From positions 18,414,001 through 18,478,000 of the forward strand of contig CM022673.1 in the NCBI GenBank assembly GCA_012295275.1: a DNA stretch of 64,000 nt, written 5' to 3'. The notes under the pieces were generated by a model. The model was not told the DNA's origin, did not search any database, and saw only the letters and a program-made list of their open reading frames with translations. Each line of letters begins with the position of its first letter. Positions within the stretch are counted from its first letter, which is position 1. A program made the translations under genes and the position numbers. Below, one piece after another: positions 7,478 to 40,010 of this stretch. This DNA comes from Chrysomallon squamiferum (lineage: Eukaryota; Animalia; Mollusca).

Positions 7478-8464
7478 AACCTTGAACTACATCAAGAAAT
7501 TCGTTTTCTTCAATCTCGTAGGATTTGTTAAATCTGACGAAACAATCTGGGCAGCCATCTTGTTTAACGCCATTCAGTAAAATTTCTTTACTGGCAGTGT
7601 TTGGTGAGTTCTCACATACAGCTAATGTTTTTGATCCGTACACCTATAAGAAGAGACAAAACAAATATGCATTTAATAATACAGTGGTACCTCGACTTAC
7701 GAGTGCACCAACTTACGAGTTTTTCGAGTTATGAGCGAGCTTCAGATACGCTGCCGCTAGTTGGCGCAACGAACAACATAACATCCGGTCATCATCCCGC
7801 GTGTTACTTTTGGTTAACTCGCCGCGGAAGCATCTCTGTTGTGTTGTGCTCGAGTTTTGTGCAAATACAAAAATGGCGTGGTTTTTGAGGGGCTGTAAGG
7901 GATTAATGATATTTCAGTTCATTTCAGCTGGAAAAATTGATTTGATATACGAACAAATTGAGTTACGAGCTCGGTCACAGAACGAATTAAACTCGTAAGT
8001 CAAGGTACAACTCCATTTATAATATTTTTATTATTTATGTATGCTTATGTACTTTATGTGATGTTTATTTTTTTGTGTGTGAATTTGTAATAGTTTAGGC
8101 TGTGATTATGTGCAATATATATTTTTCTCTCTCTTTCAGTATTAAATTAAATATAAACCTCAAGCCGCTGGTCTGTTCCATATGTAGCTTCTCGAGATGT
8201 CTCGATAAATGCAACGGCTCCACTGGGGAAAGTTAAAACAGTCGAGGACAAATCTACATCATCACAATCTCGATAGTCATCAGCCTTCGCTGAAGTCGCG
8301 TTTCCTGTGGCATACACCGTTAGAGGGCGCTCTCCCATGAAGTAACATACGTAGTCCAACTGATGAATACAGGAGTCATGAAATATTCCACCTAATTAAA
8401 TAAATCGTTATTGAAACAAAGGACAAAAAGAAATATATTTCTGATACAGACATAACGTATACTC

Positions 8465-15683: not shown

Positions 15684-16542
15684 ACAATAATATAAATTAT
15701 GCAAATAAAATTAATATTCCATGTCAAATCCCCCCCTCAAAAACCAAATTTAAACCCGACTGTCTCAGACTTTTATGAAACTTGGTATACTTGTTGACTG
15801 GGATCCCACAGCACCAAATCTGAAATATTAGCCCAATTGGATCAGTGGTGTGGGAGATATGGCCCACCGAATTTTGAGATTTTTGGCAAAAATGGGCGTG
15901 ACCACCAACTTTTGAATACTCATATCTCAGGAACTACTGGGCCAATCTTCATAAAAATATTGGGGTACATTGACAATATAGATTTAAAAGATGCCCATAC
16001 ATGAAAATAACACCTTTTCAGCCATTAACATCTGATTAACTAAAACATGAATGATCAATTCTGGATGCTAGGAATCATAATGTTAATGGCTGAAAAGGTG
16101 TTATTTTCATGTATGTGCATTTTTTAAATCTATATTAACAAAAATGGCCGATTTGGAATCCGTGTCATATTGCCTTTCCAACAATACCAATTTTATGAAG
16201 ATTGGCCCATTAGTTCCTGAGATATGAGTGTTCAAAGGTTGGTGGTCACGCCAATTTTTGCCAAAAATCTCAAAATTCGTATCTCCCACACCACTGATCC
16301 GATTGGGCTAATATTTCAGATTTGGTGCTATGGGATCCCAGTCAACAAGTATACCAAGTTTCATAAAAATCTGAGACGGTCGGGTTTAACCCACTGGGTG
16401 ATTTGACACATATTAATTTAAACTGATGGAATGGACACAAATAAATAATGACGGTTAGTTATAGTTAATTAACCCTATCCTTTTCTGTATTTATTTTAAA
16501 TCTTTAACATATAATGAACGCGACAAAAAAAAAAAAAAAAAA

Positions 16543-24314: not shown

Positions 24315-27300
24315 TCAACCCCGATGACCTCCATATGTCGGGTTTGTGAAAGTTGATGTGGCTTGTTTGTAAATTGGATTCTCACCCTGTAATAACAAAC
24401 AACCAGGTGTTAACACTGTAATCATCTACACTCACTAAGGTACTGCTTTAAAGTTCTCATCAAAATAGAGATAATTAGATCTGACTATTATTTTGAAAAA
24501 ACATTTTTAACTTGGTGTTGCGCAGAGATTTCAAGATTACAACAATACAACCAAATCAAGACTTTTTGTCCAATCCAATTAATATTTTTTAAGATGTGTT
24601 TACATAACAAATATTTAACTCATCTATACTCACAGTTAAGTGAAAAGGGCTGTAAACCCAATAGGCATTAAATACACACATACTTAATAACTTTTCTTTT
24701 GAAGAAATAAAATATAACTTACAAGACTTAATTAAGTATAATCATGCTGTTATTTCCAAAATTTACTACCGAAAAATAAAAAATTTTTATTTACCATTTC
24801 CCAAGTTGCATTCTGTCTTTCCTTCTCAAACTTGGCAAACTCTCTCCTGTCATGGATCATTGTCAACATTTTCCAGATGAGGAGGAGAGCTAGACCCACT
24901 GCAACAATCCCACCCACCACTCCACCCACTATTGCCAGAATGTTCACAGACTCAGGACACACTGATAGTTATAAAATAATCAACAAAATTAATAAAAAGA
25001 CTGTGTTAATGATCAATTTTATACTGAACAAAAAACAAATCACATGTTAAAGTTTCAAAACAAAATCAAAATGATTTGTGGACTGCAGAATAGAATATTT
25101 AGTTAAATTATTGCATTTTGTAAAATAAATATCCAATTAATTATATATTTAAATACAGAACCAAACAACTATATTTGTTAAATGGAATAGTGAAGTTTTC
25201 TGTGGTTTACATAAAACATTAGTATAGAACTTAATGGAATTTCTTTTTTTTATAAATAAAATATTAAAAACTATCAGCTTACAAATACATAATGAAAATA
25301 TAGTTATAACTATAAATATTAAAAGCAGATCTAAAAATGGTCTAAAGTATTTTTGTATACTGTAATCAAAGTGATGGAATACTTCTATTTAATTGTGTTA
25401 TAGTTTACCTTTTGTTCTCTGCACAACAATGTGAATTGCTTTGTTTTCATCATACTCGTATGTGAAATAAAACAAACACTCATCATCATCTTTGAAACGA
25501 CACATCTTAACTCCATCAGACTCTGAAACCACAACTACTAATGTAAACACAATACAGAACAATGTGCAGTGTAAAAGAGAAAGAAGAAAAAAGTTTACTT
25601 CTGCATACAGAAATAACAAATGCACACATTTAACATCCTTAAACTTTCCTATGTTTCATTATTAAAAAATGATTTATTTTTGGTACTGGAATGTTTTCAT
25701 TCATAAACACAATGACATTTATCACAACAATTTTTGTTTCAAGGAAATGCCAATTTAGACTGAATATTTTACTAAAATTCAAATCAAATATGAATTTCAT
25801 TTCTGAATTGACATAAGACAGGTTCGTAAGTACATCCAATGAGTAGATAGAATTTCACAAGAAATATTATCATTTACAAACTCAAAATATGAAACAAATT
25901 TAAAACTGCTCAAACTACTGTGGATAAATTTAACATTATAATACAATGCATAAATAACATACTCCAAACTGTAACTAGTAAAAAATATGTCTTTTAATTA
26001 TCTCTTTAATCTATGTGTATCCTGAAACACTGCATTTTTTTTTGATAATTCTAGAAAAATTATATTTTTGAAAAAAACCTACTGTTAACAATTTTAAACA
26101 CTACCTTTTACTTCATCTTTGACGACGATGTTGTGACAGTCACGCTGACACTGTTCTCTTGTGAGAGGTCCTGTCTCAAAGGCAAAACACTGAACACACT
26201 CCTTGTTTTCAGCACATTTACCTGGACATGTCTGTGTAAACATAAAACATTTTTTATTATAGTTGTAATGAAGTCTGTGAAAAAATAAAACTGTTTTACA
26301 TTTTAGTTATAATAAAGTCTGGATAAAAATGAAACTGTATTACATACTTGTAACAAAGTCTGTAAAAATAAAACTGTATTATATTTTAGTTATAATAAAG
26401 TCTGTTTAAAAATAAAACTGTATTATATTATAGTTCTAATCAAAACACTGAACACACTCCTTGTTCTCAGCCCATTTACATGTCTCTGTAAAATGACAAA
26501 AACTTTTTAACAGTTTTTTTTTATGTGATATGCTAAGTAGAAAAAAAAGAAATAAACATAAAATCATCAAAAATCTCCATAGATTTCACTGAATCTCAAA
26601 TAAATAATCACTTATTTAGGCTTTTTGTTCACACCATTACCAGTAAACTTAAACAAAAGACAACAACAATAATGGAATAATATTTACACCGACAACTCCA
26701 TGCTTTAATAATTACAATAAAATGATATATAAAAAAAGATTCCAAACTTACTGGACATTCTTCACATGTAGGTCCTCGGTACAGAGTGTTTTTATCACAC
26801 ACACAGCTTCCACAAATACACGTACCAAAACCATTACACTCTTTCTGTAAACGAACAATCACCTCATTTAATAAACAAATAAATAAATAATAAACAAATA
26901 AATAAATAATAAACAAACAAACAAACAAACAAACAATACAATAAAGTTAAATACTGTCAACAAAACTTTTCAATTTCTGCATTCTCCATAAAGCCTTTTT
27001 TAACAGGTTTCTGACACAAAACAATATTTTTAATGTACCAGCAATAAATCACCTTAAGTAAAAAAGTAATAATTACAAAACTGAAAAATTGTGCTATTTA
27101 TAAAGTCAGGGAAAAAAAACTTAGAAGAAATTGTAACCACTGTATTATAATTAACCTCATAAACTATTAAATTTCTCAAACAAAATTATGACTGATAATA
27201 AATTATAAAAGAAAAATTAAACTGACCCCATTAGCAGAAATACAGTCTGTGTTGTCTTGTTTACACTCACAGGAAGTTCCATTATATGGAGGTTTACAAT

Positions 27301-30300
27301 GACACACTCCACACTTACATATTCCTCTCTCCGGTCCTGAATAAAATTTTTTTTTACAGTTCTTACATTTTTCTTTTAAATGTTCCAAGTGTCTATCTAA
27401 GCATGTTTTTTTATCAACTGCTTACACATACACACACACATACACATTTTGTATGTCTGGGTTATTATGTGTGTTTAGGTGTGCTTATGTATTTTGTTTG
27501 AAAATTTCATGAACTGTATGTGCATGTACATGAATATATCAGTAGATTTGTGTTTTGAAATGTATATATTTATAACTCTATTTGTTCATGTATGCTGTCA
27601 AGATCACATAATTAATATTTCTGTAAGCAATCATTATAAAAGCAGACAAATTGAAATGTTACATGTGTTACATTTGAAATGCTTACTTCAACAACATAAT
27701 TAATATTTCTGTAAGAAATCATAATAATGCAGTTAAACTGAAATGTTACAGATGTTACATTTGAAATGCTTACCTCCACACAGTTGGTGGTCGTAGTAGT
27801 CACATGAGTAGTCATCACACTCGCAGAATGGGCCACTGTACTTGAACGCTGAATCTGAACTTCTCTGATAACACTCACAGATGCCACAAACACACTGTCC
27901 TTTACCTGAACATGGTACTGTTGAGTTTGGCCTGGTTTGTAAAACATATATTATTATTTTATTGTTGTTGTTGTTGCTATTTTTGTTGTTGTTATTACTG
28001 TCATTATTATTATTAAACTGGAGAGACAGCTATAAACACTGAATAATAACAATTTGTTTCTTTAGAAGCCGAGTAAAAATGATCTCTTTTGTCTAAGAGA
28101 AACTTGAAGAAGAAAATATTTATAAAACAAAAGATGAAAAGAATATTTACTTAATACACTTGGCATCAGATTCTTCACTGGAGACCACAGTGTCATCACA
28201 TTCACAAAACTTTCCATATCTGCCATGATTGCAGGTACATTTTCCACATTCATATGTACCATTACCATTAGAACATAGTGGACTGTTTGGAATCTAATAA
28301 ACAAAACATCACAGAAATCACAAATACTTAAACTAAGTCTCATCTCTGTAACACTGATAATAACAATTACAGGGGATGATTACATAACTATTTTAATTAT
28401 AATTAACTCAAAAAACTTATAAAATAATAATAATTAAAAGCAAATAATAATAATAAAAAAAAAAAAAAAAAAATAAAAAAGATTTGAATAACAAATCTAG
28501 AGGTACATTTTACTTTAAATGACTAGACTAGAGGCTAGAGTGTAGATTGTTTAAACATTGTGTGTGAAATGTGACTCACCTCCTGGCCCTTTGTTTCACA
28601 TTCACACTCACAGATCAGTTCCAGATTGATAAGTAATTTCTCTGCCAGACCCACAGGGTAGATTTCCAGCTGTCTGTTCCACCTGAGTCTGTCCCTGGGA
28701 CAGTCTGTCACTGTGATCTCAGCAGTAAATGTCACCTGAAACATTATTTTATATTTACAATATTTACATTACTTTCATTTCAAATATTATTTTACATTCA
28801 CAATATTTACATTACTTTCATTTCAAACACCATTTTGCATTTACAATAGTTACATTACTTTCATTTCAAACATTTTACATTTTACAATATTTATTACAAG
28901 TTCTTTAGGAAACATGAACTTTCATTTAAAACTCTTTATAATGATTATATCTAAAAAGATTTCACATTACACAATTTTACATTCAGTTAGTACAACAATT
29001 TCAAAATTGTTGCTGTAATTTTTTCTTTTTATTTTAAGATTATACTTTAACAGACTGATATTAACTATACAAATAAATCAAACATCATTTAGCATAATAT
29101 AACATGTTTGTTATTACTACTGAGTAACTTTAATTAAATAACATTATTTTTCATTTCTTGCAGTTATACTTACATTAGTTCCTATCTTCAAACCTTCACA
29201 TTCATTTGTTTCTTTAATTTTATTTCTGTAACAAGAGAACACTATGATACAAAACAGAAATGAAAGCTAATTTATTTACATTGTTTATTTACATAATCTA
29301 TGGTGGTTATCTGCAATACTGTGAGAATAATATAGCAAGTAAAATTAGTGTTTTTATTTTTTATTATCATCACTAAAATACATACCCAAGACATTTTGAG
29401 AAAAAGTTTACAGTGATGTTTTCTGCATTCTGGGTATTCAAAGTAACTTTTGAGGTAATTTTCTGAAAATAGAACAAAATGTACATAAAGTTTAGTCAAT
29501 CAAATAAATAAATATAAAATGAATTTTCAATCAGACTCATTATCTAAACAAAACAAAATAACTTTTTTGTATTTTTATATTTAAATTTATATTAATTAGA
29601 TATGAACAAATCACAGGACTGAACAGAATCACCTTTTAATTATTTTTTATATTTTTATATTTAAAATATATTAATCAGACATGAACAGATTAATTAACTG
29701 AACAGACTTACCTCATAATTATTTTCTTAAATTTTTTTATTCAAAACATATTAATTAGACATAAATGGAATTACCTTGTAATTGTTTCTGATTAGTGCGA
29801 CAATATTAGCCGAGTCATCAGCAAGTTCTCCAGCAATGGAGCCCTCAATGTACTTAGAGAGTTTTTCATAGACAGCTTTCTGATCCTTGGTGACAGCAAA
29901 AATAACATTGACCTTTTTCTGACTTATCATAGCAGCTATCTGACTAACTGATGGATAATCCTGTAACCACAACAATGTTTAACATTAAACATCAGCCATA
30001 TATCAAATACATAATTATTATTATTTTTTTTTTTAAACTAAAATCCCTCTTGGTAATAAGCAGCATGTGATCTTTTATAAACATTTTTTCAGGACAATAA
30101 AACAGATGCCACAGCTTTTGATAAATGTGCTGGATGGATTTGAAGCAGCCAGACAGTCTCTGTAATACGTGTTTGTAACAAATTGTAGTGTATCTATTAT
30201 ATGGTGCTAACTTATGTTTATACAGCAGCAAGTAATCTTTACAAGTACTATATCTGATATAATACTCAAAATAAATACTAAGCAAGTAAGAATGATGACA

Positions 30301-30817
30301 GGAAGAAAATGGGAATGATGCAAAAAAGATATATTGTAACTATCCTGTACTTATGAAACCAGTAAAATGAAAAAAAAGCCTGCCATTTTATTCATCAGTG
30401 AGAGTTAGAATGCCAAAAGAGATATAGGATGCTTTGATTTATTACAAATAGGAGTTCATGTGTAAAAATTCATTAACGTACCTGGTTGGAGCTTTCCGTG
30501 TACATTCCATGACTATTCATGTGACAGTGTCCATCATTTGGTTTAATAATACCACCAAGCTGAACACAAAATGAAAATGCTTTTTAAAACATTATTATTT
30601 TCATATAAATCAATTACATTTCTCTAGAATCCACCACAGAATACAAATTAACCAAACTGATTATTTAACATTACTATGTTTGTGTATGTGTTATTACTTA
30701 TATACACATTTAATCTCTCACAATTTGACAGATTTTCACTGCATGGACAAAGAGTGCTGATAAACAACAAGAAAACTTTCACAGTGAAACTATACTGTGC
30801 TGAAGACAGAAAAAAAA

Positions 30818-30849
<32 letters not shown>

Positions 30850-33800
30850 GAAGAAGAAGAATAAGAATAATTTAATAAAAATATAGTTATATTTTGTACA
30901 TGAAGTGTGATGAAGTTATTTGTAGTTTAGTTAATCAGTGTTCTAAATTACACAAGTACCAGCTTGTGTCTGGTGAACTAAAAATAGATCATCAAATCAC
31001 ATTCTACACATACAATATTACACACAAATATAAATATCAGCACAAACACTGAACATTCTTCACAAACCAGAGATGTGCACTAACAGTTATTAATTAAAAA
31101 ACAGTGGAAATAGACACAAAACAAAGAATGTTACATAGTTCATCACATGGACATGCAAAACTAATATATATGTTCAATATAAAAACACAAATCAAATATA
31201 CAAGTCAAAAATAAATAAAAATTAATTGCAAAACAAATTGAGCCATTGTCATTACAGGTGGGTATATCCGTGTGTAGATGTGTATATATGTGTGTTAATG
31301 TTAAGGACATTTAAGTGTGTTTTATTTATTAATTTTTTTTTTTAATCCTTTCAAACATTACAGCTGTCAGATAAAAACAAACGGCATTTTGTCATCATCA
31401 AAATAAAAGAAACATAGAAGACTCAAAATTCAGAGATTGCACATCTCAACAAATTTAATAAAATTTTCTATCAGTTGATTAAAATGTGAGTGTAGATTAA
31501 CTTTAATTAACTAGAGTAAGCTAAACGGACCTTTCCATCACCAGCATAATGAAATCCTGCATCCGTAGAGAAAACAAGCATTCTTCTCGACTGATTGCGC
31601 CAGCCTATATCTGACTGAAAACAAGTCACACACATCAAAACATGGAGTTTAAAAAAAAAAAAAGACTTTGTGAAACTGTTTCTGTCATGTCAGTAATGCA
31701 CAAACAACTCTGTACACACTCAGTTTAGTTGTTCTCTTTTCATTTGGTTTTATTACAAAGCTAAACTATAAAAAAAGGTTATTCATATTTAAAAGAAAAT
31801 TAAAGAATGCATTACTGTCATACACACAAGAACAGTTTCACTAAATAAAATGGTAAATCATTCAATGCAAAAGCAGGTAATGAGAAGCAAAGAGTTAACA
31901 AGGAATAAATAACAACACTCTAGAGTTATTTTTCACATGACATGGCTTTCACAAACCTTTCCATCCCCTGCATAATGAAAACCAGCATCCGTTGAAAATA
32001 CCAACATTCTGCGAGACACATTTCGCCAGCCTATTGTCTCCTTGACAACAAGAAAACAGTTACAGCAATATTCAAATTTACATACTTGATGTCAGTAATA
32101 ACAACACATCTTGATCACGGAAGATAAATATTAAAACTGTGCAGCATCATTAATTCAGAATTAAGGTATATTCATTTTTTTAATTTTAAATATTTAAATT
32201 TCAAAAACAAAAAGAAAAAAGATCAAATAAATGTAAGTAGTAATGTGAATATCTTACATCACAAACAATTGCCTGCATAATGGCATCAAAACCACCCTCC
32301 GGGGCATCCAGATTTCCTGATACATTGGCAGCCAGCACCTTTTTCTGTTAAACATAAGTATAGTGAAATATAAATATTGACACTCTCTGTCAAAGAAAGC
32401 AATTCATAAGTCTCATAAATTTTATAAATTATATTTAAAATTTTGTTAACAATAGTTGGTTTTATTAAATATTCAATAACTGTAATTTAAAAAAAAAAAA
32501 AATTCAAGATATGCATCCTAAAAATAATTCTAAAGTAAACTTTTTACTTTGATTAATGATTAAAATATTAAGAATTATGTCAATGAGTTTTGATCCTGTG
32601 TCTCAACTACCAAACTAGCAAAAAAAATACCTTTAACAATTTCATTAAGATTAATCATGAACTGATCGCATCAGTAATTTAGTGAATAAAATACATATAA
32701 CAGTTGTGCTATCTAAATTATAATAATTATAAAAATGTTCTTGACGGGTAAATCCTGATATTAAAACACACACTTACAGCAAAGAGAGAAGTGTCTAAAT
32801 CCAGACTCAGCTGATTTTTAAAACTGTATGGAGCTTCACATGGTGCTCCAGTACTTGTACGACATGGAATACGCAGTCTGATGAAATAAAAATTAAGAAA
32901 CAAAAACATTATATATATACACACACACACACATTTCCAACAGCATGACTGCTAAAATAACAAAACCTTTTAAATTTAATAAATATATTCTTTCATGTTA
33001 AAATGATTTCAGAAAATTATTTATATATAAACACTTACTTTTGTTCCACAGTACTAACATATGGCATAACAACTTTGTCCACAAATGATCCAAATCCAAG
33101 ACGGAAATTCTTTGTAATGGCAGACATACTTTCAGCTGAAAAATGTGACAACAAATATATCTTGTTTTAATTCTTTATCATTATTAATTACTAATTTGTG
33201 AGAAAAGCAATATGTATTCTATCAAAGACATATATATAACTTGTGTCATTTCCATAAAATTCCTGTTTAATTTTTTTAACAAAGAAAACACCAAAAAACA
33301 AAAAAAAACTATGCTAGTTAATTATACTACCTTTAAATAGTGAAGAATTAGACATTTAAAACATTTACGAAATTTAAAGTTAACATATTTAAATGTAAAC
33401 CAAACAGTAACTCTGAATTACTCAAGAGTTTTAAACAAAGAAATGTGTGCATAAAATAAAACCTACCAATGAGATTTCCCAGCTCCGCTAATTTGTCTTT
33501 GTCATCCTCCATAGAGTTGGAAAGATCCATCAAGTAGTACAGGTCTACAGGGTAATTCTCTGCCTGTCGAAACTTGATTGGTATTGTCACTGGTTTGTCT
33601 GGTAAAAATTATATTTTATTATTATTTAGTGGGTAGGTGAAAGATAGAAACAGAATAATAACTGATATGGAAAATGAGGAATTTCAATTCTTAAAGTCTC
33701 TGCAACAAATATTAACAAATTTAATTCCTATAAAAATATATAAAGTAGCCACTATCAAATTAATCTTTTATATAAATATCATAGCAATAAACTTGTATTA

Positions 33801-34186
33801 AAGAGATATTAGAAATATATCGAGGTTTAAAATATTTTAATAGTAAGGTTACTGTAACACTCACTGGGTCTAATCTTGATTTTCACTTCTTGTGGCTGAA
33901 TTTGCACTGCATCTTCCGGTCTGTCTCCATCTTGCACTGGATCATTCTAAATCCAGTAAGAAAATAAACATTTATTATACATTTGATTCTGAAATATCCT
34001 TTCAAATACTTACAATCTAAAATTAAAATATTGTTAAAAGAAAGATGGACACAAAGGTTAATTCTGTACAATGTAAATGTTTTATATGATGTGCTAAAAA
34101 TATTTTATTGATGATTTGCACCCACCTATACACAACATAAAGGGATGGGCAGGATAGGTATTCTTAATTTTATTTTCATATGATAC

Positions 34187-34226
<40 letters not shown>

Positions 34227-35327
34227 CCATCTTACCCTCAAGTTCACTGTGCTGTCCCCAGGGAACACAATACTGTCTGGGTCACACCCTCCAGCTTTGA
34301 CAAGGTTTTCATACAAATCACATCTTGCTCGATTCTCCTTGTCAAAAGCCTGCAACATAAATAGTGTTATACATAGGACAGACATTAATATTAGTTTTGG
34401 TTAAATTTACCTGGTCTACACTAAACTTCAAAATGTTTAATTTACTTACGATTTTCATTCAGTTTCAGTTAATTCTTTTCATTCAAACAAAACATCTTAA
34501 TTAATTGCAAAGTCAGCCAGTATTAGTTAATTCTTTAGGGATTAATGTTAACAGCCTTTAAATCATTAAAGTGTAACTTATTTTATATAGTATACATAGT
34601 TCCGTTTTTTAATTATATATTTTTAATGAAATAATGATATACATAGGTTGCTAATGTAAATAAATGTGACAAAATTCCTAGTGATGTTATAAAATAAAGA
34701 ACATGATAACCTAAAAGTAGCTTTGTGGATTTATTATCTTATTTAATATTTAAGTATATACAATGGCTTGGTTTTCAGTAACATACATATATATAAAAAA
34801 ACATTTTAATTTTTTTTTTTTAAATTACTTGATAATATATAATATCACTTTAGACTATTAATTAGCTTCAAGTTTCAACTAATTTATTTAACTTCAAATC
34901 AATTTAATAACAGTTCAGGCTTCACTGAAGTTTTAATATATATAAATCTTTATTACCTCAGCCAAACACCATCCACAGCCAGCTGCAGTGGCAATACACT
35001 GACCACAGGATACCTGAGCCTTGTCATCCAGACAGGGGTTCACCTTACCATGACCTGAAACAATACCCACCCTTAGTACAATATACACATCTCAGTACTA
35101 CATACTGGATTTATATTTAGTAGTAACAGCATTAAGCAGTATTTTTAAAATTTGATTACATGTATCATTGTTTTTTGTGAATGCTTTTGATTTTTTTTAT
35201 CTGACCTACATCTTCACTATAGTATATTTATTATGTACAACTATGATTCTACAGGTATGCTTATGCTGCTGGTGTTAGTACAACCACTGTTATTACTGCT
35301 GCTATATCCTCCTTCTACTAATAATGT

Positions 35328-35412
<85 letters not shown>

Positions 35413-35772
35413 TTTGAACATTTGAAGAGTTAATTATTAATAAATGATGGATCTAATTATGGTGAATATATAATTATATTACTTTATTGTAATGATTAAT
35501 CATGGCATAACACAGTAAAATATGTGTTAAAAATGGTTATAAATTTCACATCAGTAAAAACAAACAACAAATAATTATACATTCATTAATTTTACTCTTT
35601 TCTTAATTAATATTAATTATTTATTTATTTATTTTAAGAAATAATAAAATAATGTATTTAAATATATATTTTAATTATCTGTATAATTACTTTTAAATTT
35701 CGTACCTTGTGCATTGGTTGCAGAAACAGCAATTAGTAAAATAATAAAGATCTCTTTCATGTCAAGCGTCAT
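24315..35772 (-). CDS. integrin beta subunit (beta-1/betaPS type), ~797 aa, 22 coding exons per transcript
   Basis: Exons 35772-35706, 35054-34957, 34349-34236, 33946-33865, 33598-33467, 33135-33039, 32877-32778, 32344-32258, [32040-31957 or 31614-31531], 30559-30482, 29960-29775, 29462-29386, 29225-29174, 28735-28580, 28293-28151, 27931-27774, 27336-27227, 26844-26752, 26231-26105, 25522-25409, 24961-24795, 24386-24315. Features: signal peptide, PSI Cys, [18 protein letters not shown] (MIDAS), [30 protein letters not shown] repeats, [18 protein letters not shown] and NPTY. Confidence 0.97.
31531..31614 (-). CDS. integrin beta alternative coding exon 9b ([28 protein letters not shown])
   Basis: 84 nt, phase 0/0, ttcag|TCA...AAG|gtccgt. 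Confidence 0.88.
31670..31841 (-). promoter_or_regulatory. intronic inverted repeat (candidate splicing-regulatory RNA stem) between exons 9a and 9b
   Basis: gtgaaactgtt (31670-80) pairs with aacagtttcac (31831-41) at 11/11. atgtcagtaatgca (31687-700) pairs with tgcattactgtcat (31808-21) at 13/14. The helices are nested and colinear. Confidence 0.65.
31957..32040 (-). CDS. integrin beta alternative coding exon 9a ([28 protein letters not shown])
   Basis: 84 nt, phase 0/0, caag|GAG...AAG|gtttgt. Confidence 0.88.
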
Positions 35773-37189: not shown

Positions 37190-38161
37190 GTAAATTAATA
37201 AATAATTAGGCCTATAAGTTAAAATTTATTTTCAGGTGATGTGTGTGCTAATGAAAATACACCTACACATTTGACTAACTTCAATGAGATTGTGACAGAT
37301 TTTCTGAAAGAACAAGGAATTCCTGGGGCATCCCTTGCTTTGTGTTACAATGGAAATCTGGTTTACAGTCAAGGTATTACAAAAACAAAATAAAAGGAAT
37401 TGTAGAATAGATACAATTACATGATATAAAACCATAAATGATTTATGTATTTTTTGTTGTTGTTGACATGAAGGTTATGGGTCAGGTGGATGTGGAAGGC
37501 GGGTGCACTCTGCCTCACAGTTCCGCATTGCTAGTATCAGTAAAACCATCACTGCAGCAGCTGTTCTTAGACTGGTGGAACAGGAAAAGATAACTCTAGA
37601 AGATACTCTATTTGGAGATAAAGGTAATCAAAATTTAATCTTTATATTTATACTTTTATTATAAATTTTATCCAACACACTTATATATATATTGCCTTTA
37701 TGTTTTGTTTTCATTTTTATTTTACTTTATTGTTATTGTTATTATTTTTTTTTTTATCTTTTTTATTATTATTTTTTTTTTACTATAGGAATTTTGAAAC
37801 AGTTTAAACCGACCAAAAAGGGAGATAAACGTGTGTTAAAGATAACAGTACGACATTTGTTACAACATTCAGGAGGCTGGGATCGAGACCGAGCAGGAGA
37901 TGCAGTGTTTTGGAAACTGGACAAGGTCACTCAGTGGGTGGATGCTACAAGTGAGGCAGCAAATAAACGACTGGTCAAGTTTATGATGACCAAAAAATTG
38001 CAGTTCACTCCTGGTCTGTTTACATTGCAGCATTTACCAGCTACTTAGAAAAAAACCTTAATACATGCTCTTCAAAATATATAGTTAAATGACATGATTT
38101 CTGTGTTTTTAATATTTACATCTGAGAATATTATAATTTTAAAATTATTACAGTAAATAAA

Positions 38162-38192
<31 letters not shown>

Positions 38193-40010
38193 TTTTTTAC
38201 TAAATTTTGGAAAATGCTCATGTATTTCATTTTTCTTTATTTTCTTGATCTCTATTTAAAACACAAGTAATAATTTTTCAGGAAGCAGACATTCTTATTC
38301 TAATCTAGGGTATCTAATTCTGGGTTTGGTTGTCACAGAAGTCGCTGGTGTGACTTATGAAACTTATGTCACATCAATGATAGATGAGATAGGAATAAAA
38401 ACTCTCAAAGTTGGAAACACAAAACATATACTGTGTTCTCCAGATGAGGTTTGAACATTTTGTAAAATTTGAATTTATTTTGTTAGTTTCAAAAAATAAT
38501 TGTTTTTAAGTCACAGGTATGCAAATTATCAAGTATTAACATTTAATGTACATCAAGTTCACTAGTTTATCATCTGTCATGAATCTGACATTTAAATTTG
38601 CTGATATATTTGAATAATTACTCGAATGTTTATATCTAATTTATTTAAAATATTTTTAATTACTCAAATCAAGTATATATTTATGATTTTCATGTTTGCT
38701 TGATTCTTGATTTATATCATTCAGTTTATTTTTTAATGTAGGTCGAGTACTTCAATAAACGTGACCCACAGCTTCAACAATCTATCTTCAAAGGGGAGGG
38801 AACTGTTGTACCACAGTATGGATCCTTCAGTATGGAGAACACAGCAGCGTATGGGGGGTGGGTCATCTCAGCTGTGGACCTGATTAAAATATTACACTCT
38901 CTAGATGGTTCAAATAGATTTTCTCTTCTTTCAGCTTCATCATTTTCACAAATGATCAAAGCTCCTAGTTTTTCAAATGGACCTGATTGGTATGGTCTTG
39001 GCCTTGATGTCCAGGACAGTGGCTTGACCTGGGGTCACACTGGAGCTATGGAAGGGACGTCATGCGCGATGATGAAACACAAGAGTAATATGTCATGGGT
39101 TTTCTTATTGAATGCTTGGTCTAGAGACTCTGATCTTGATGGTTTGATCAAGTTTGCTCTGAGCACAGTTGAATGCTGGCCACTGTGGTATCATTTTCCT
39201 CAGTCTTCAGCAGATATGTTTGAAATTCTGTCTCAGGATGGACAACAGTTAGTCAAGTTGAGACTTCCTTGTGTCTCTCTCAAAGACTATTTGAACTGTA
39301 AATTATCTTGTGGATTTGTAATTAAGTGTATTAATGCTTGTAGTGATGGTGGTGATATTTATTTTAATTTAGTCATGAATTTAGAAGATAAAAAATGTAT
39401 TTTTAAAACTGATGTACGAATAGAAGATATTGATATGCAGATTGATAGAGCTAGTAAAAATGGTTTTGTTCTCGATTTTGTAGAAGTGTATGTTACTTGT
39501 GACTGTCCATTACACATTTTAATATTTTATCAAAGTTTAGAAAATGACAGGAAATTTTATTCTTTACTTGAAGCTACAGAATATTTAGAGTTAGTTAAAG
39601 TACAGAAGGAAACTGGTTATCAAGTTTCTCTGCAGTCTGTTGTTTGTATATCTGATAAAATTTTAGTTTCAGCCATCTTTAAAAAAATGGAATATTTTAC
39701 TACTTTTTCTTGGGTACAAATATCCCCTGAAGACTTTGTTTTTGAATTAAGAAAACAAATTATTAAAAAGAATCACTTGATTTATATGAAATTCTTTTCC
39801 GTGAATAATGAGTCCTATGTCAGTGCTGTTTGGGCGGCCAGGTACCATGGTAACTGTTACCAAAGAAACGGATCTTCACTGTATGGGTTTTTATATGAAC
39901 TGCGTAATTCAGCCTTGATGAATATTCATGTAGAGTGTTTGTCTGCATACAGTGAAGATGGTATTATTAACTATGCTGCAGTGTGGTCAGAAGGAAATGA
40001 AACTATTTAA
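36654..40010 (+). CDS. serine beta-lactamase/DD-peptidase-like hydrolase with five C-terminal ~50-aa repeats (BTRD1/polyglycine-hydrolase-like), ~670 aa, 6 exons
   Basis: Exons 36654-36717 (least certain), 37236-37373, 37474-37623, 37789-38013, 38282-38448, 38742-40010; phases consistent. Motifs: IPGASLA, FRIASISK (SxxK), ITVRHLLQHSGG, FTPGSRHSYSNLGY (YxN), AYGGWVISAVDL, YGLG, WGHTG (HTG). The repeats end in FNLVM/HILIF/VSAIF/VSAVW/YAAVW. Confidence 0.9.

Follow-up and report, generated by a model that had tools for sequence, protein, structure and literature searches.

A predicted intronic hairpin that may gate the branch site of an alternative integrin beta exon in Chrysomallon squamiferum

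An integrin beta gene on the reverse strand of the window (the whole 64,000-nucleotide stretch of Chrysomallon squamiferum DNA analyzed here) contains two tandem versions of its ninth exon, 9a and 9b, and the intron that separates them is predicted to fold into a long stem enclosing the most consensus-like branch motif ahead of exon 9b. The folding models point to a real hairpin that likely gates exon 9b, at an exon pair that appears to be undescribed, and the general kind of mechanism, control of either-or exons by RNA structure, is known. The reading that we prefer, to which we assign a probability of roughly 0.4, is that the stem controls access to the 9b branch site, its 3′ arm (S2) being contested mainly between the intronic 5′ arm (D) and the exon 9a donor. 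The positions of the elements are given in Table 1.

Table 1 Features of the integrin beta gene and its exon 9 region, as positions in the window.
Feature	Positions	Strand	Remarks
Integrin beta gene, ~22 exons	24321..35772	-	approximate limits; tblastn with Gigantopelta aegis P0001
Exon 8, 87 nt	32258..32344	-	constitutive by position
S1, 11-mer with TACTGAC (32097-32091)	32089..32099	-	branch-like A at 32092
Local hairpin, 10 bp	32035..32058	-	predicted by folding; would bury the 9a acceptor (AAG)
Exon 9a, 84 nt	31957..32040	-	phase 0, AG/GT ends
X, exon 9a donor region, -6 to +22	31935..31962	-	complementary to S2
AG-free pyrimidine-rich tract, 76 nt	31843..31918	-	intron +39 to +114
D, 5′ arm of the predicted main stem	31807..31846	-	at intron +116
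S2, 3′ arm of the predicted main stem	31665..31701	-	
Exon 9b, 84 nt	31531..31614	-	phase 0, AG/GT ends
Exon 10	30482..30559	-	

In the tblastn comparison with P0001, the gene is ~90% identical to its Gigantopelta aegis counterpart, with most exons at 80-97% and one at 98%, and the 9b peptide of P0001 is identical to that encoded by exon 9b here. A preliminary description of this DNA had placed a 342-nt intron between exons 9a and 9b, and the sequence bears this out; both exons measure 84 nt. The two exons differ at 3 of 28 residues and are 75% identical in DNA, with silent differences in 11 of the 25 shared codons, from which we conclude that the duplication is old. Because both exons keep the reading frame, decay cannot enforce the either-or choice between them. 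Exon 9 aligns with residues ~263-289 of integrin beta-1, within the betaI domain, in a stretch that we take to include a metal-site aspartate and a glycosylation site, and as only three residues differ here, the functional effect of isoform choice may be small. The window also contains, at 26485-26441 on the reverse strand, a shortened copy of the first part of the beta-tail exon at 26231, preceded by an AG and with an in-frame stop after ~17 codons, which is likely a dead partial duplicate. A neighboring spliced gene on the forward strand (37223-40010) matches the Pfam Beta-lactamase family PF00144, at E 6.6e-11 for the best piece and with a faint hit to BTRD1 at the end of the gene, and likely encodes a serine hydrolase of the beta-lactamase fold.

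Database annotations suggest that the exon 9 pair is used either-or in related molluscs. The tally from fetched records covers 28 mollusc species, a few partial or redundant records (e.g., P0032 and P0036) being omitted, and two forms with one copy of the exon per record are found in 10 of the 16 species having at least two records: Patella vulgata, Haliotis rufescens, Dreissena, Mercenaria, Ruditapes, Mya, Sinanodonta, Mizuhopecten, Argopecten, and Pecten. Tandem 9a and 9b copies occur within single gene models of Lottia and Patella caerulea (2 models). Forms with an a-type exon 9 are present in Haliotis, Patella, and clams, and the difference at residue 8, V/I vs Q, recurs in both snails and clams. 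Gigantopelta aegis is represented by one record, carrying 9b, and a short-protein search for the spliced 9a form of a close relative returned a best identity of only 81%, with none close; a search of the exon pattern in genome contigs and in viral contigs gave no match in either. No description of the exon pair or of its RNA structure was found in the open-licence literature. An exon pair kept across snails and clams, placed in the betaI domain and distinct from the known fly pair, is a finding in itself.

That fly pair consists of alternative exons 4A and 4B of Drosophila betaPS (myospheroid), of which one splice form shows ligand selectivity (PMC9218073, PMC2148222). In both cases the alternative exons encode part of the ligand-binding domain of an integrin beta from an invertebrate, but the Drosophila X1 and X2 forms have the same sequence throughout exon 9 and differ instead in a 29-residue stretch equivalent to the present exon 7. 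Homology of 9a/9b to 4A/4B is therefore ruled out, since the arthropod pair corresponds to exon 7 and not to exon 9. Arthropod loci L025 and L074 contain tandem copies of an exon-7-type exon, and the intron before exon 9 is mostly absent from the insect loci fetched. Records from Mercenaria (P0319/P0315), Ruditapes (P0317/P0320), and Mya (P0323/P0324) show a further alternative pair, located at the exon-7 stretch like Drosophila 4A/4B, and in these three clams the exon-7-stretch pair and the exon-9 pair occur in all four combinations.

The preliminary description had drawn attention to the same 11-mer ahead of both exons, at 32099-32089 and 31697-31687, and these are indeed its only two exact copies in the window. 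The spacing that it gave, ~50 and ~75 nt before the respective AGs, also agrees with the branch-like A being at -52 from exon 9a and at -76 from exon 9b, where the S2 copy of TACTGAC (31695-31689) places it at 31690, intron +267. TACTGAC has just two copies in 11.4 kb of sense strand, both ahead of exons 9a and 9b, and CT[AG]AC is found in the last 110 nt of none of the 20 other acceptors of the gene; this placing is beyond chance. The shared 11-mer as such is only modestly unlikely, being matched in 17% of 5000 whole-intron shuffles and in 2.4% when the last 100 nt are considered, and its motif family is over-represented (8 matches vs 3.6 expected). Neutral carry-over of TACTGAC is unlikely given how long the exons have diverged, and the motif is probably the working branch site of both 9a and 9b. 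Against this, exon 9b has ordinary weak branch candidates closer to its AG, for example TTGAT at -21. A second 11-mer, GTGTTGTTATT, is common to both introns (32106-32096 and 31919-31909, reverse strand), with its first copy running into S1; it is UG-rich and is perhaps a protein site. An intronic AAT/AAC repeat 4 kb downstream (28004-27987, reverse strand) complements the S1 region at 17 of 18 positions with -20.7 kcal/mol, which is better than D does, and this complementarity is likely due to chance.

Between the two exons, the preliminary description had located a docking element at 31841-31808, with nested complementarity to the 9b region of 11/11 and 13/14 positions, and both the element and the complementarity (with 31700-31670) are present. 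They are part of a predicted stem of 34 pairs (31846-31807 with 31701-31665), in which D5′ (31846-31831) pairs the 3′ part of S2 and D3′ (31822-31807) pairs the branch motif. At -36.0 kcal/mol, the stem was equaled by none of 60 dinucleotide shuffles of the intron (-19.9 ± 2.3, best -26.3), it accounts for about 30 expected pairs in a 580-nt context, and in a duplex scan of 32344-30900 it alone stands clearly beyond a crowd of pairs at -21 to -24 kcal/mol. The sole mismatch of the 13/14 helix falls on the branch A, 31690, which lies opposite an A and is unpaired with a probability of 0.82; that the mismatch should fall there is a 1-in-14 coincidence at worst. In support of the claim that the stem would mask the 9b branch site, a strong predicted stem covers TACTGAC; it leaves the branch A unpaired. 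The stem-loop, at positions 111-292, encloses each of the 12 AGs that occur between intron +39 and the acceptor, three of them (31683, 31677, and 31667) within S2.

It is somewhat unlikely, in our estimate, that the stem has no role, being a chance or decayed inverted duplication, and that exon choice falls to weak splice sites, distant branch sites, and splicing proteins. Among 186 tiled 342-nt segments the stem ranks fifth, and the 4 of 185 others that are as strong comprise two simple repeats and two inverted repeats. The splice sites are also weak, with a buried AAG acceptor and GTTTGT and GTCCGT donors, of 22 acceptors, the four with the most structure include both alternative ones (the cost of opening that of 9a, 10.8 kcal/mol, is third highest), and most human clusters of mutually exclusive exons lack an identified RNA structure (PMC5740500). 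Yet the stem sits on this one intron, where the sole consensus-like branch motif and every downstream AG are covered by it, an analogous stem occurs ahead of exon b in three other loci (see below), and there is no second copy of either stem arm in the window, which also leaves an origin from a transposon family unsupported. The core of D recurs at two other places in the window. Rfam covariance models gave no match in 31400-32400 at E up to 1, and D was found, at up to 3 mismatches, in 0 of 77 metagenome loci carrying the exon. Two inverted repeats, one near-perfect with 37 bp (~15880-16224) and one looser (7670-8016), are possibly small transposon remnants.

The preliminary description held that a 342-nt intron is too long for simple steric exclusion, but that conclusion is not warranted, since in OGDH exclusion is enforced by distant branch points close to the donor (PMC7969005). 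Dscam exon 17 is cited there as a further case of steric-type exclusion (PMC3917985). Like OGDH 4a/4b and Dscam exon 17, the present exon pair has an intron of a few hundred bases with a pyrimidine tract free of AGs, a candidate distant branch site, and predicted structure around that site. Only 3.2% of the gene's positions have upstream of them an AG-free run as long as the one that starts at +39. TGTTAAC, a weaker candidate for the branch site, matches at 5/7 positions with its A at intron +62 (31895) and is followed by an 80% pyrimidine tract; other candidates near the donor are at +51 (4/7) and a weak AAATAAC at +31. In plain sequence there are 12 AGs between +39 and the 9b acceptor, and an AG-free zone exists only if the stem-loop hides them.

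Exon 9b might be proposed to branch near the 9a donor, at +62 or at the weaker +31 or +51, with the D-S2 stem always folded so that it hides the AGs and the -76 motif and brings the acceptor close. The candidate at +62, the tract after it, the absence of AGs from +39 to +114, and the enclosure of every later AG except the acceptor in the stem-loop all suit this arrangement, as does its demonstration for OGDH (PMC7969005), but +62 is beyond the published threshold of ~50 nt (PMC7969005, PMC5740500), and in OGDH the branch sites are 25-41 nt from the donor (PMC7969005), whereas here the best motif is at +267 and only a donor-near candidate is at +62. It also offers no explanation for the best branch motif being at -76 and repeated before 9a, and a 115-nt AG-free run is present in the preceding intron as well. 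We regard it as quite improbable. In intron 8 (32257-32138, reverse strand), a branch-like TACTTAC at +24 was observed ahead of that 115-nt run.

The preliminary description had proposed that D toggles between S1 and S2. Its 10/11 match of D to the 9a motif is present in the sequence, but the toggling is unsupported, as the D-S1 pairing is at chance level and has 0.0 expected pairs in unforced models. According to how the elements are delimited, the D-S1 duplex reaches -10 to -16 kcal/mol, which makes it weaker than D-S2 by ~20 kcal/mol. Full-length D is paired as well or better by 86-91% of 588 real 217-nt segments, and its 3′ half by 27%, while S1 is paired as well as by D by 7.5% of 10,662 pieces of the window. 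When the weaker of the two pairings was taken as the statistic, the ability of one element to pair both acceptor regions was equaled by 107 of 150 shuffles and is not beyond chance. In the 580-nt model, D-S1 has 0.0 expected pairs whether the RNA is free, D-S2 is forbidden, or the 9b branch site is held open, the same value was obtained in 8 of 8 nascent (truncated) transcript snapshots, and forcing the pairing costs 16 kcal/mol. For D3′ alone, the energies are -17.5 kcal/mol with S2 vs -10.1 to -12.8 kcal/mol with S1. Folding models of this type do not admit pseudoknots and often miss real long-range helices, and for that reason these results only remove support from D-S1, which on the models would be at most an accessory of the second state described below.

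Competition of the proposed kind is known from human ATE1 exons 7a/7b, in which R3 is contested by R1 and R4 and splicing is rescued by compensatory mutants (PMC7797038). The novelty claimed for the layout is therefore overstated, human ATE1 having the same one proved by mutagenesis; for an integrin beta gene, no account of it was found in the open-licence literature. As in ATE1, two similar elements (here an identical 11-mer) lie upstream of two tandem exons with one complementary element between them, and the choice would be made by hindering a 3′ splice region. In ATE1, however, vertebrates conserve both pairings, compensatory mutants prove them, and R1 and R4 overlap splice sites and pyrimidine tracts (PMC7797038), whereas here only one of the predicted pairings is beyond chance and the motifs that would serve as elements, at -52 and -76, are branch-like. 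An ATE1-type switch, in which D would pair S1, looping out 9a and masking its branch site, or S2, masking that of 9b, is unlikely, also in a refined form in which the outer D5′-S2 helix is fixed and only D3′ toggles, as a pseudoknot. The order of the elements is that of ATE1 R1, R3, and R4 (PMC7797038), S1 and S2 have 11 nt in common though the exons are long diverged, and at the level of D3′ the energy gap between S2 and S1 narrows; set against these are the background level of D-S1 with its 0.0 expected pairs in every unforced model, the branch consensus, which explains 7 of the 11 shared bases, and the presence of the D core at two other places. As pairing beyond chance was found with one partner and not with both, we do not file the case as an ATE1-type member, though the D-S2 system may work in a related way.

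A better competitor than the D-S1 pairing is, on the models, the 9a donor, which pairs S2. The X-S2 pairing comprises one helix of 9 and one of 8 Watson-Crick pairs, with a further 7 pairs across the junction, and its -24.7 kcal/mol was equaled by 0 of 3000 shuffles of the intronic part and by 13 of 10,662 pieces of the window (D and the antisense of S2 among them), though its chance level is better put nearer 1% than 0.1% because it was found post hoc among about ten site-element pairs. The 10 other donors tested give -5.6 to -14.1 kcal/mol with S2, so that X is the best of 11. Once D-S2 is forbidden or D is blocked, X-S2 forms ~24 pairs, in a fold that sits 9-10 kcal/mol above the ground state. 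Pairing of S2 with the 9a pyrimidine tract was also considered and is weak (-17.1 kcal/mol, 3.9% of segments as good, at most 0.22 expected pairs).

S2 is likely a hub, since it can pair either the intronic arm D or the exon 9a donor, and from the models we infer that both the D-S2 and the X-S2 pairing form in the cell. In the gating model, the first state (state A) would have D-S2 formed, favored by ~9 kcal/mol, with the 9a donor free and the 9b branch site closed, so that 9a would not be joined to 9b and would go to exon 10. The second (state B) would arise if a protein or the spliceosome took D; S2 would then capture the 9a donor, 9a would be skipped, and at the 9b branch site U2 would have only the short D3′ helix to open. 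That ~10 pairs of D3′ still cover the 9b branch motif in the X-S2 state is a weak point of the model. A further point against gating is that 9a should be the default under state A, whereas the single Gigantopelta aegis record carries 9b.

RNA-pairing control of either-or exons has been proved mostly in insects and in human ATE1, and the present case, with five elements within 450 nt, would be a compact molluscan one, well suited to minigene work, that could reveal whether hairpins are able to control a branch site and to exchange it for a donor site. Masking of a 3′ splice region by structure is known from chicken beta-tropomyosin. As in Drosophila srp exon 4 (PMC4691838) and in the docking/selector systems of Dscam, 14-3-3zeta, and Mhc (PMC6071210), intronic pairings here would favor one tandem exon, with splice-site strength as a modulator. 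For srp, a pseudoknot of both pairings has been entertained, and there are four conserved elements, one of them downstream of the second exon (PMC4691838), whereas none was identified downstream of 9b in the scan to 30900.

A metagenome scan yielded the 77 loci with the exon mentioned above, among which there are five distinct tandem pairs (L005, L026, L006/7, L016/17, and L040/41), none of which appears to be from a snail. None of these five distant tandem loci shares the D, S1, or S2 sequences, which is expected, since structures of this type are generally not preserved over long distances (PMC7797038, PMC5740500). A stem near exon b beat shuffles in one of the five, L041, where it is built of a motif repeated in the locus. 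In the two-way pairing test, L006 was equaled by 6 of 150 shuffles and L026 by 1 of 25, the rest being at chance (19/30, 8/20, and 8/15). In L006, one element, spanning +119 to +153 of the intron that follows exon a, can pair with either acceptor region at nearly the same strength (-28.4 and -23.8 kcal/mol) and covers a TTCTAAC at -75, and on these predictions L006 is a better ATE1-type candidate than the window's own elements. The likeness of this element's position to that of D (+116), together with its two-way pairing, would favor an ATE1-type switch here too; against that, L006 is one of six loci tested, with L026 at 1/25 and the rest at chance.

AG-free zones of 143, 89, and 112 nt precede exon b in three of the five tandem loci, compared with a median of 29 and a maximum of 73 nt at 40 single-exon acceptors, and L005, L026, and L069 share a stem, AUGAAURA/UUAUUCAU, before a b-type exon, which was found at 0 of 51 single-exon acceptors, these 40 and 51 controls being largely related records and so not independent. 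The 3′ arm of the shared stem contains a branch-like A, at -76 in L005, -98 in L026, and -34 in L069. By analogy, the features of the tandem loci fit a distant, hairpin-covered branch site for exon b; homology is unproven. A bolder form of the model, which we consider a long shot, would make the branch-site hairpins that precede this exon in other lophotrochozoans (L005, L026, L069, and L006) descendants of the same device, a bistable switch of four elements. Its state A would be the full D-S2 hairpin, with 9b shut and 9a free, and its state B a pseudoknot with S2 on the 9a donor and D3′ on the 9a branch site, so that 9a would be silenced at both ends and the 9b branch site opened; D3′ would act as an anti-branch strand, covering TACTG as U2 would and leaving the branch A unpaired. 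If true, such a device would govern a pair of integrin beta exons that both snails and clams retain. Finally, the bivalve-like loci L017 and L041, neither of which contains its exact complement, have an identical 19-nt pyrimidine-poor acceptor before exon b.
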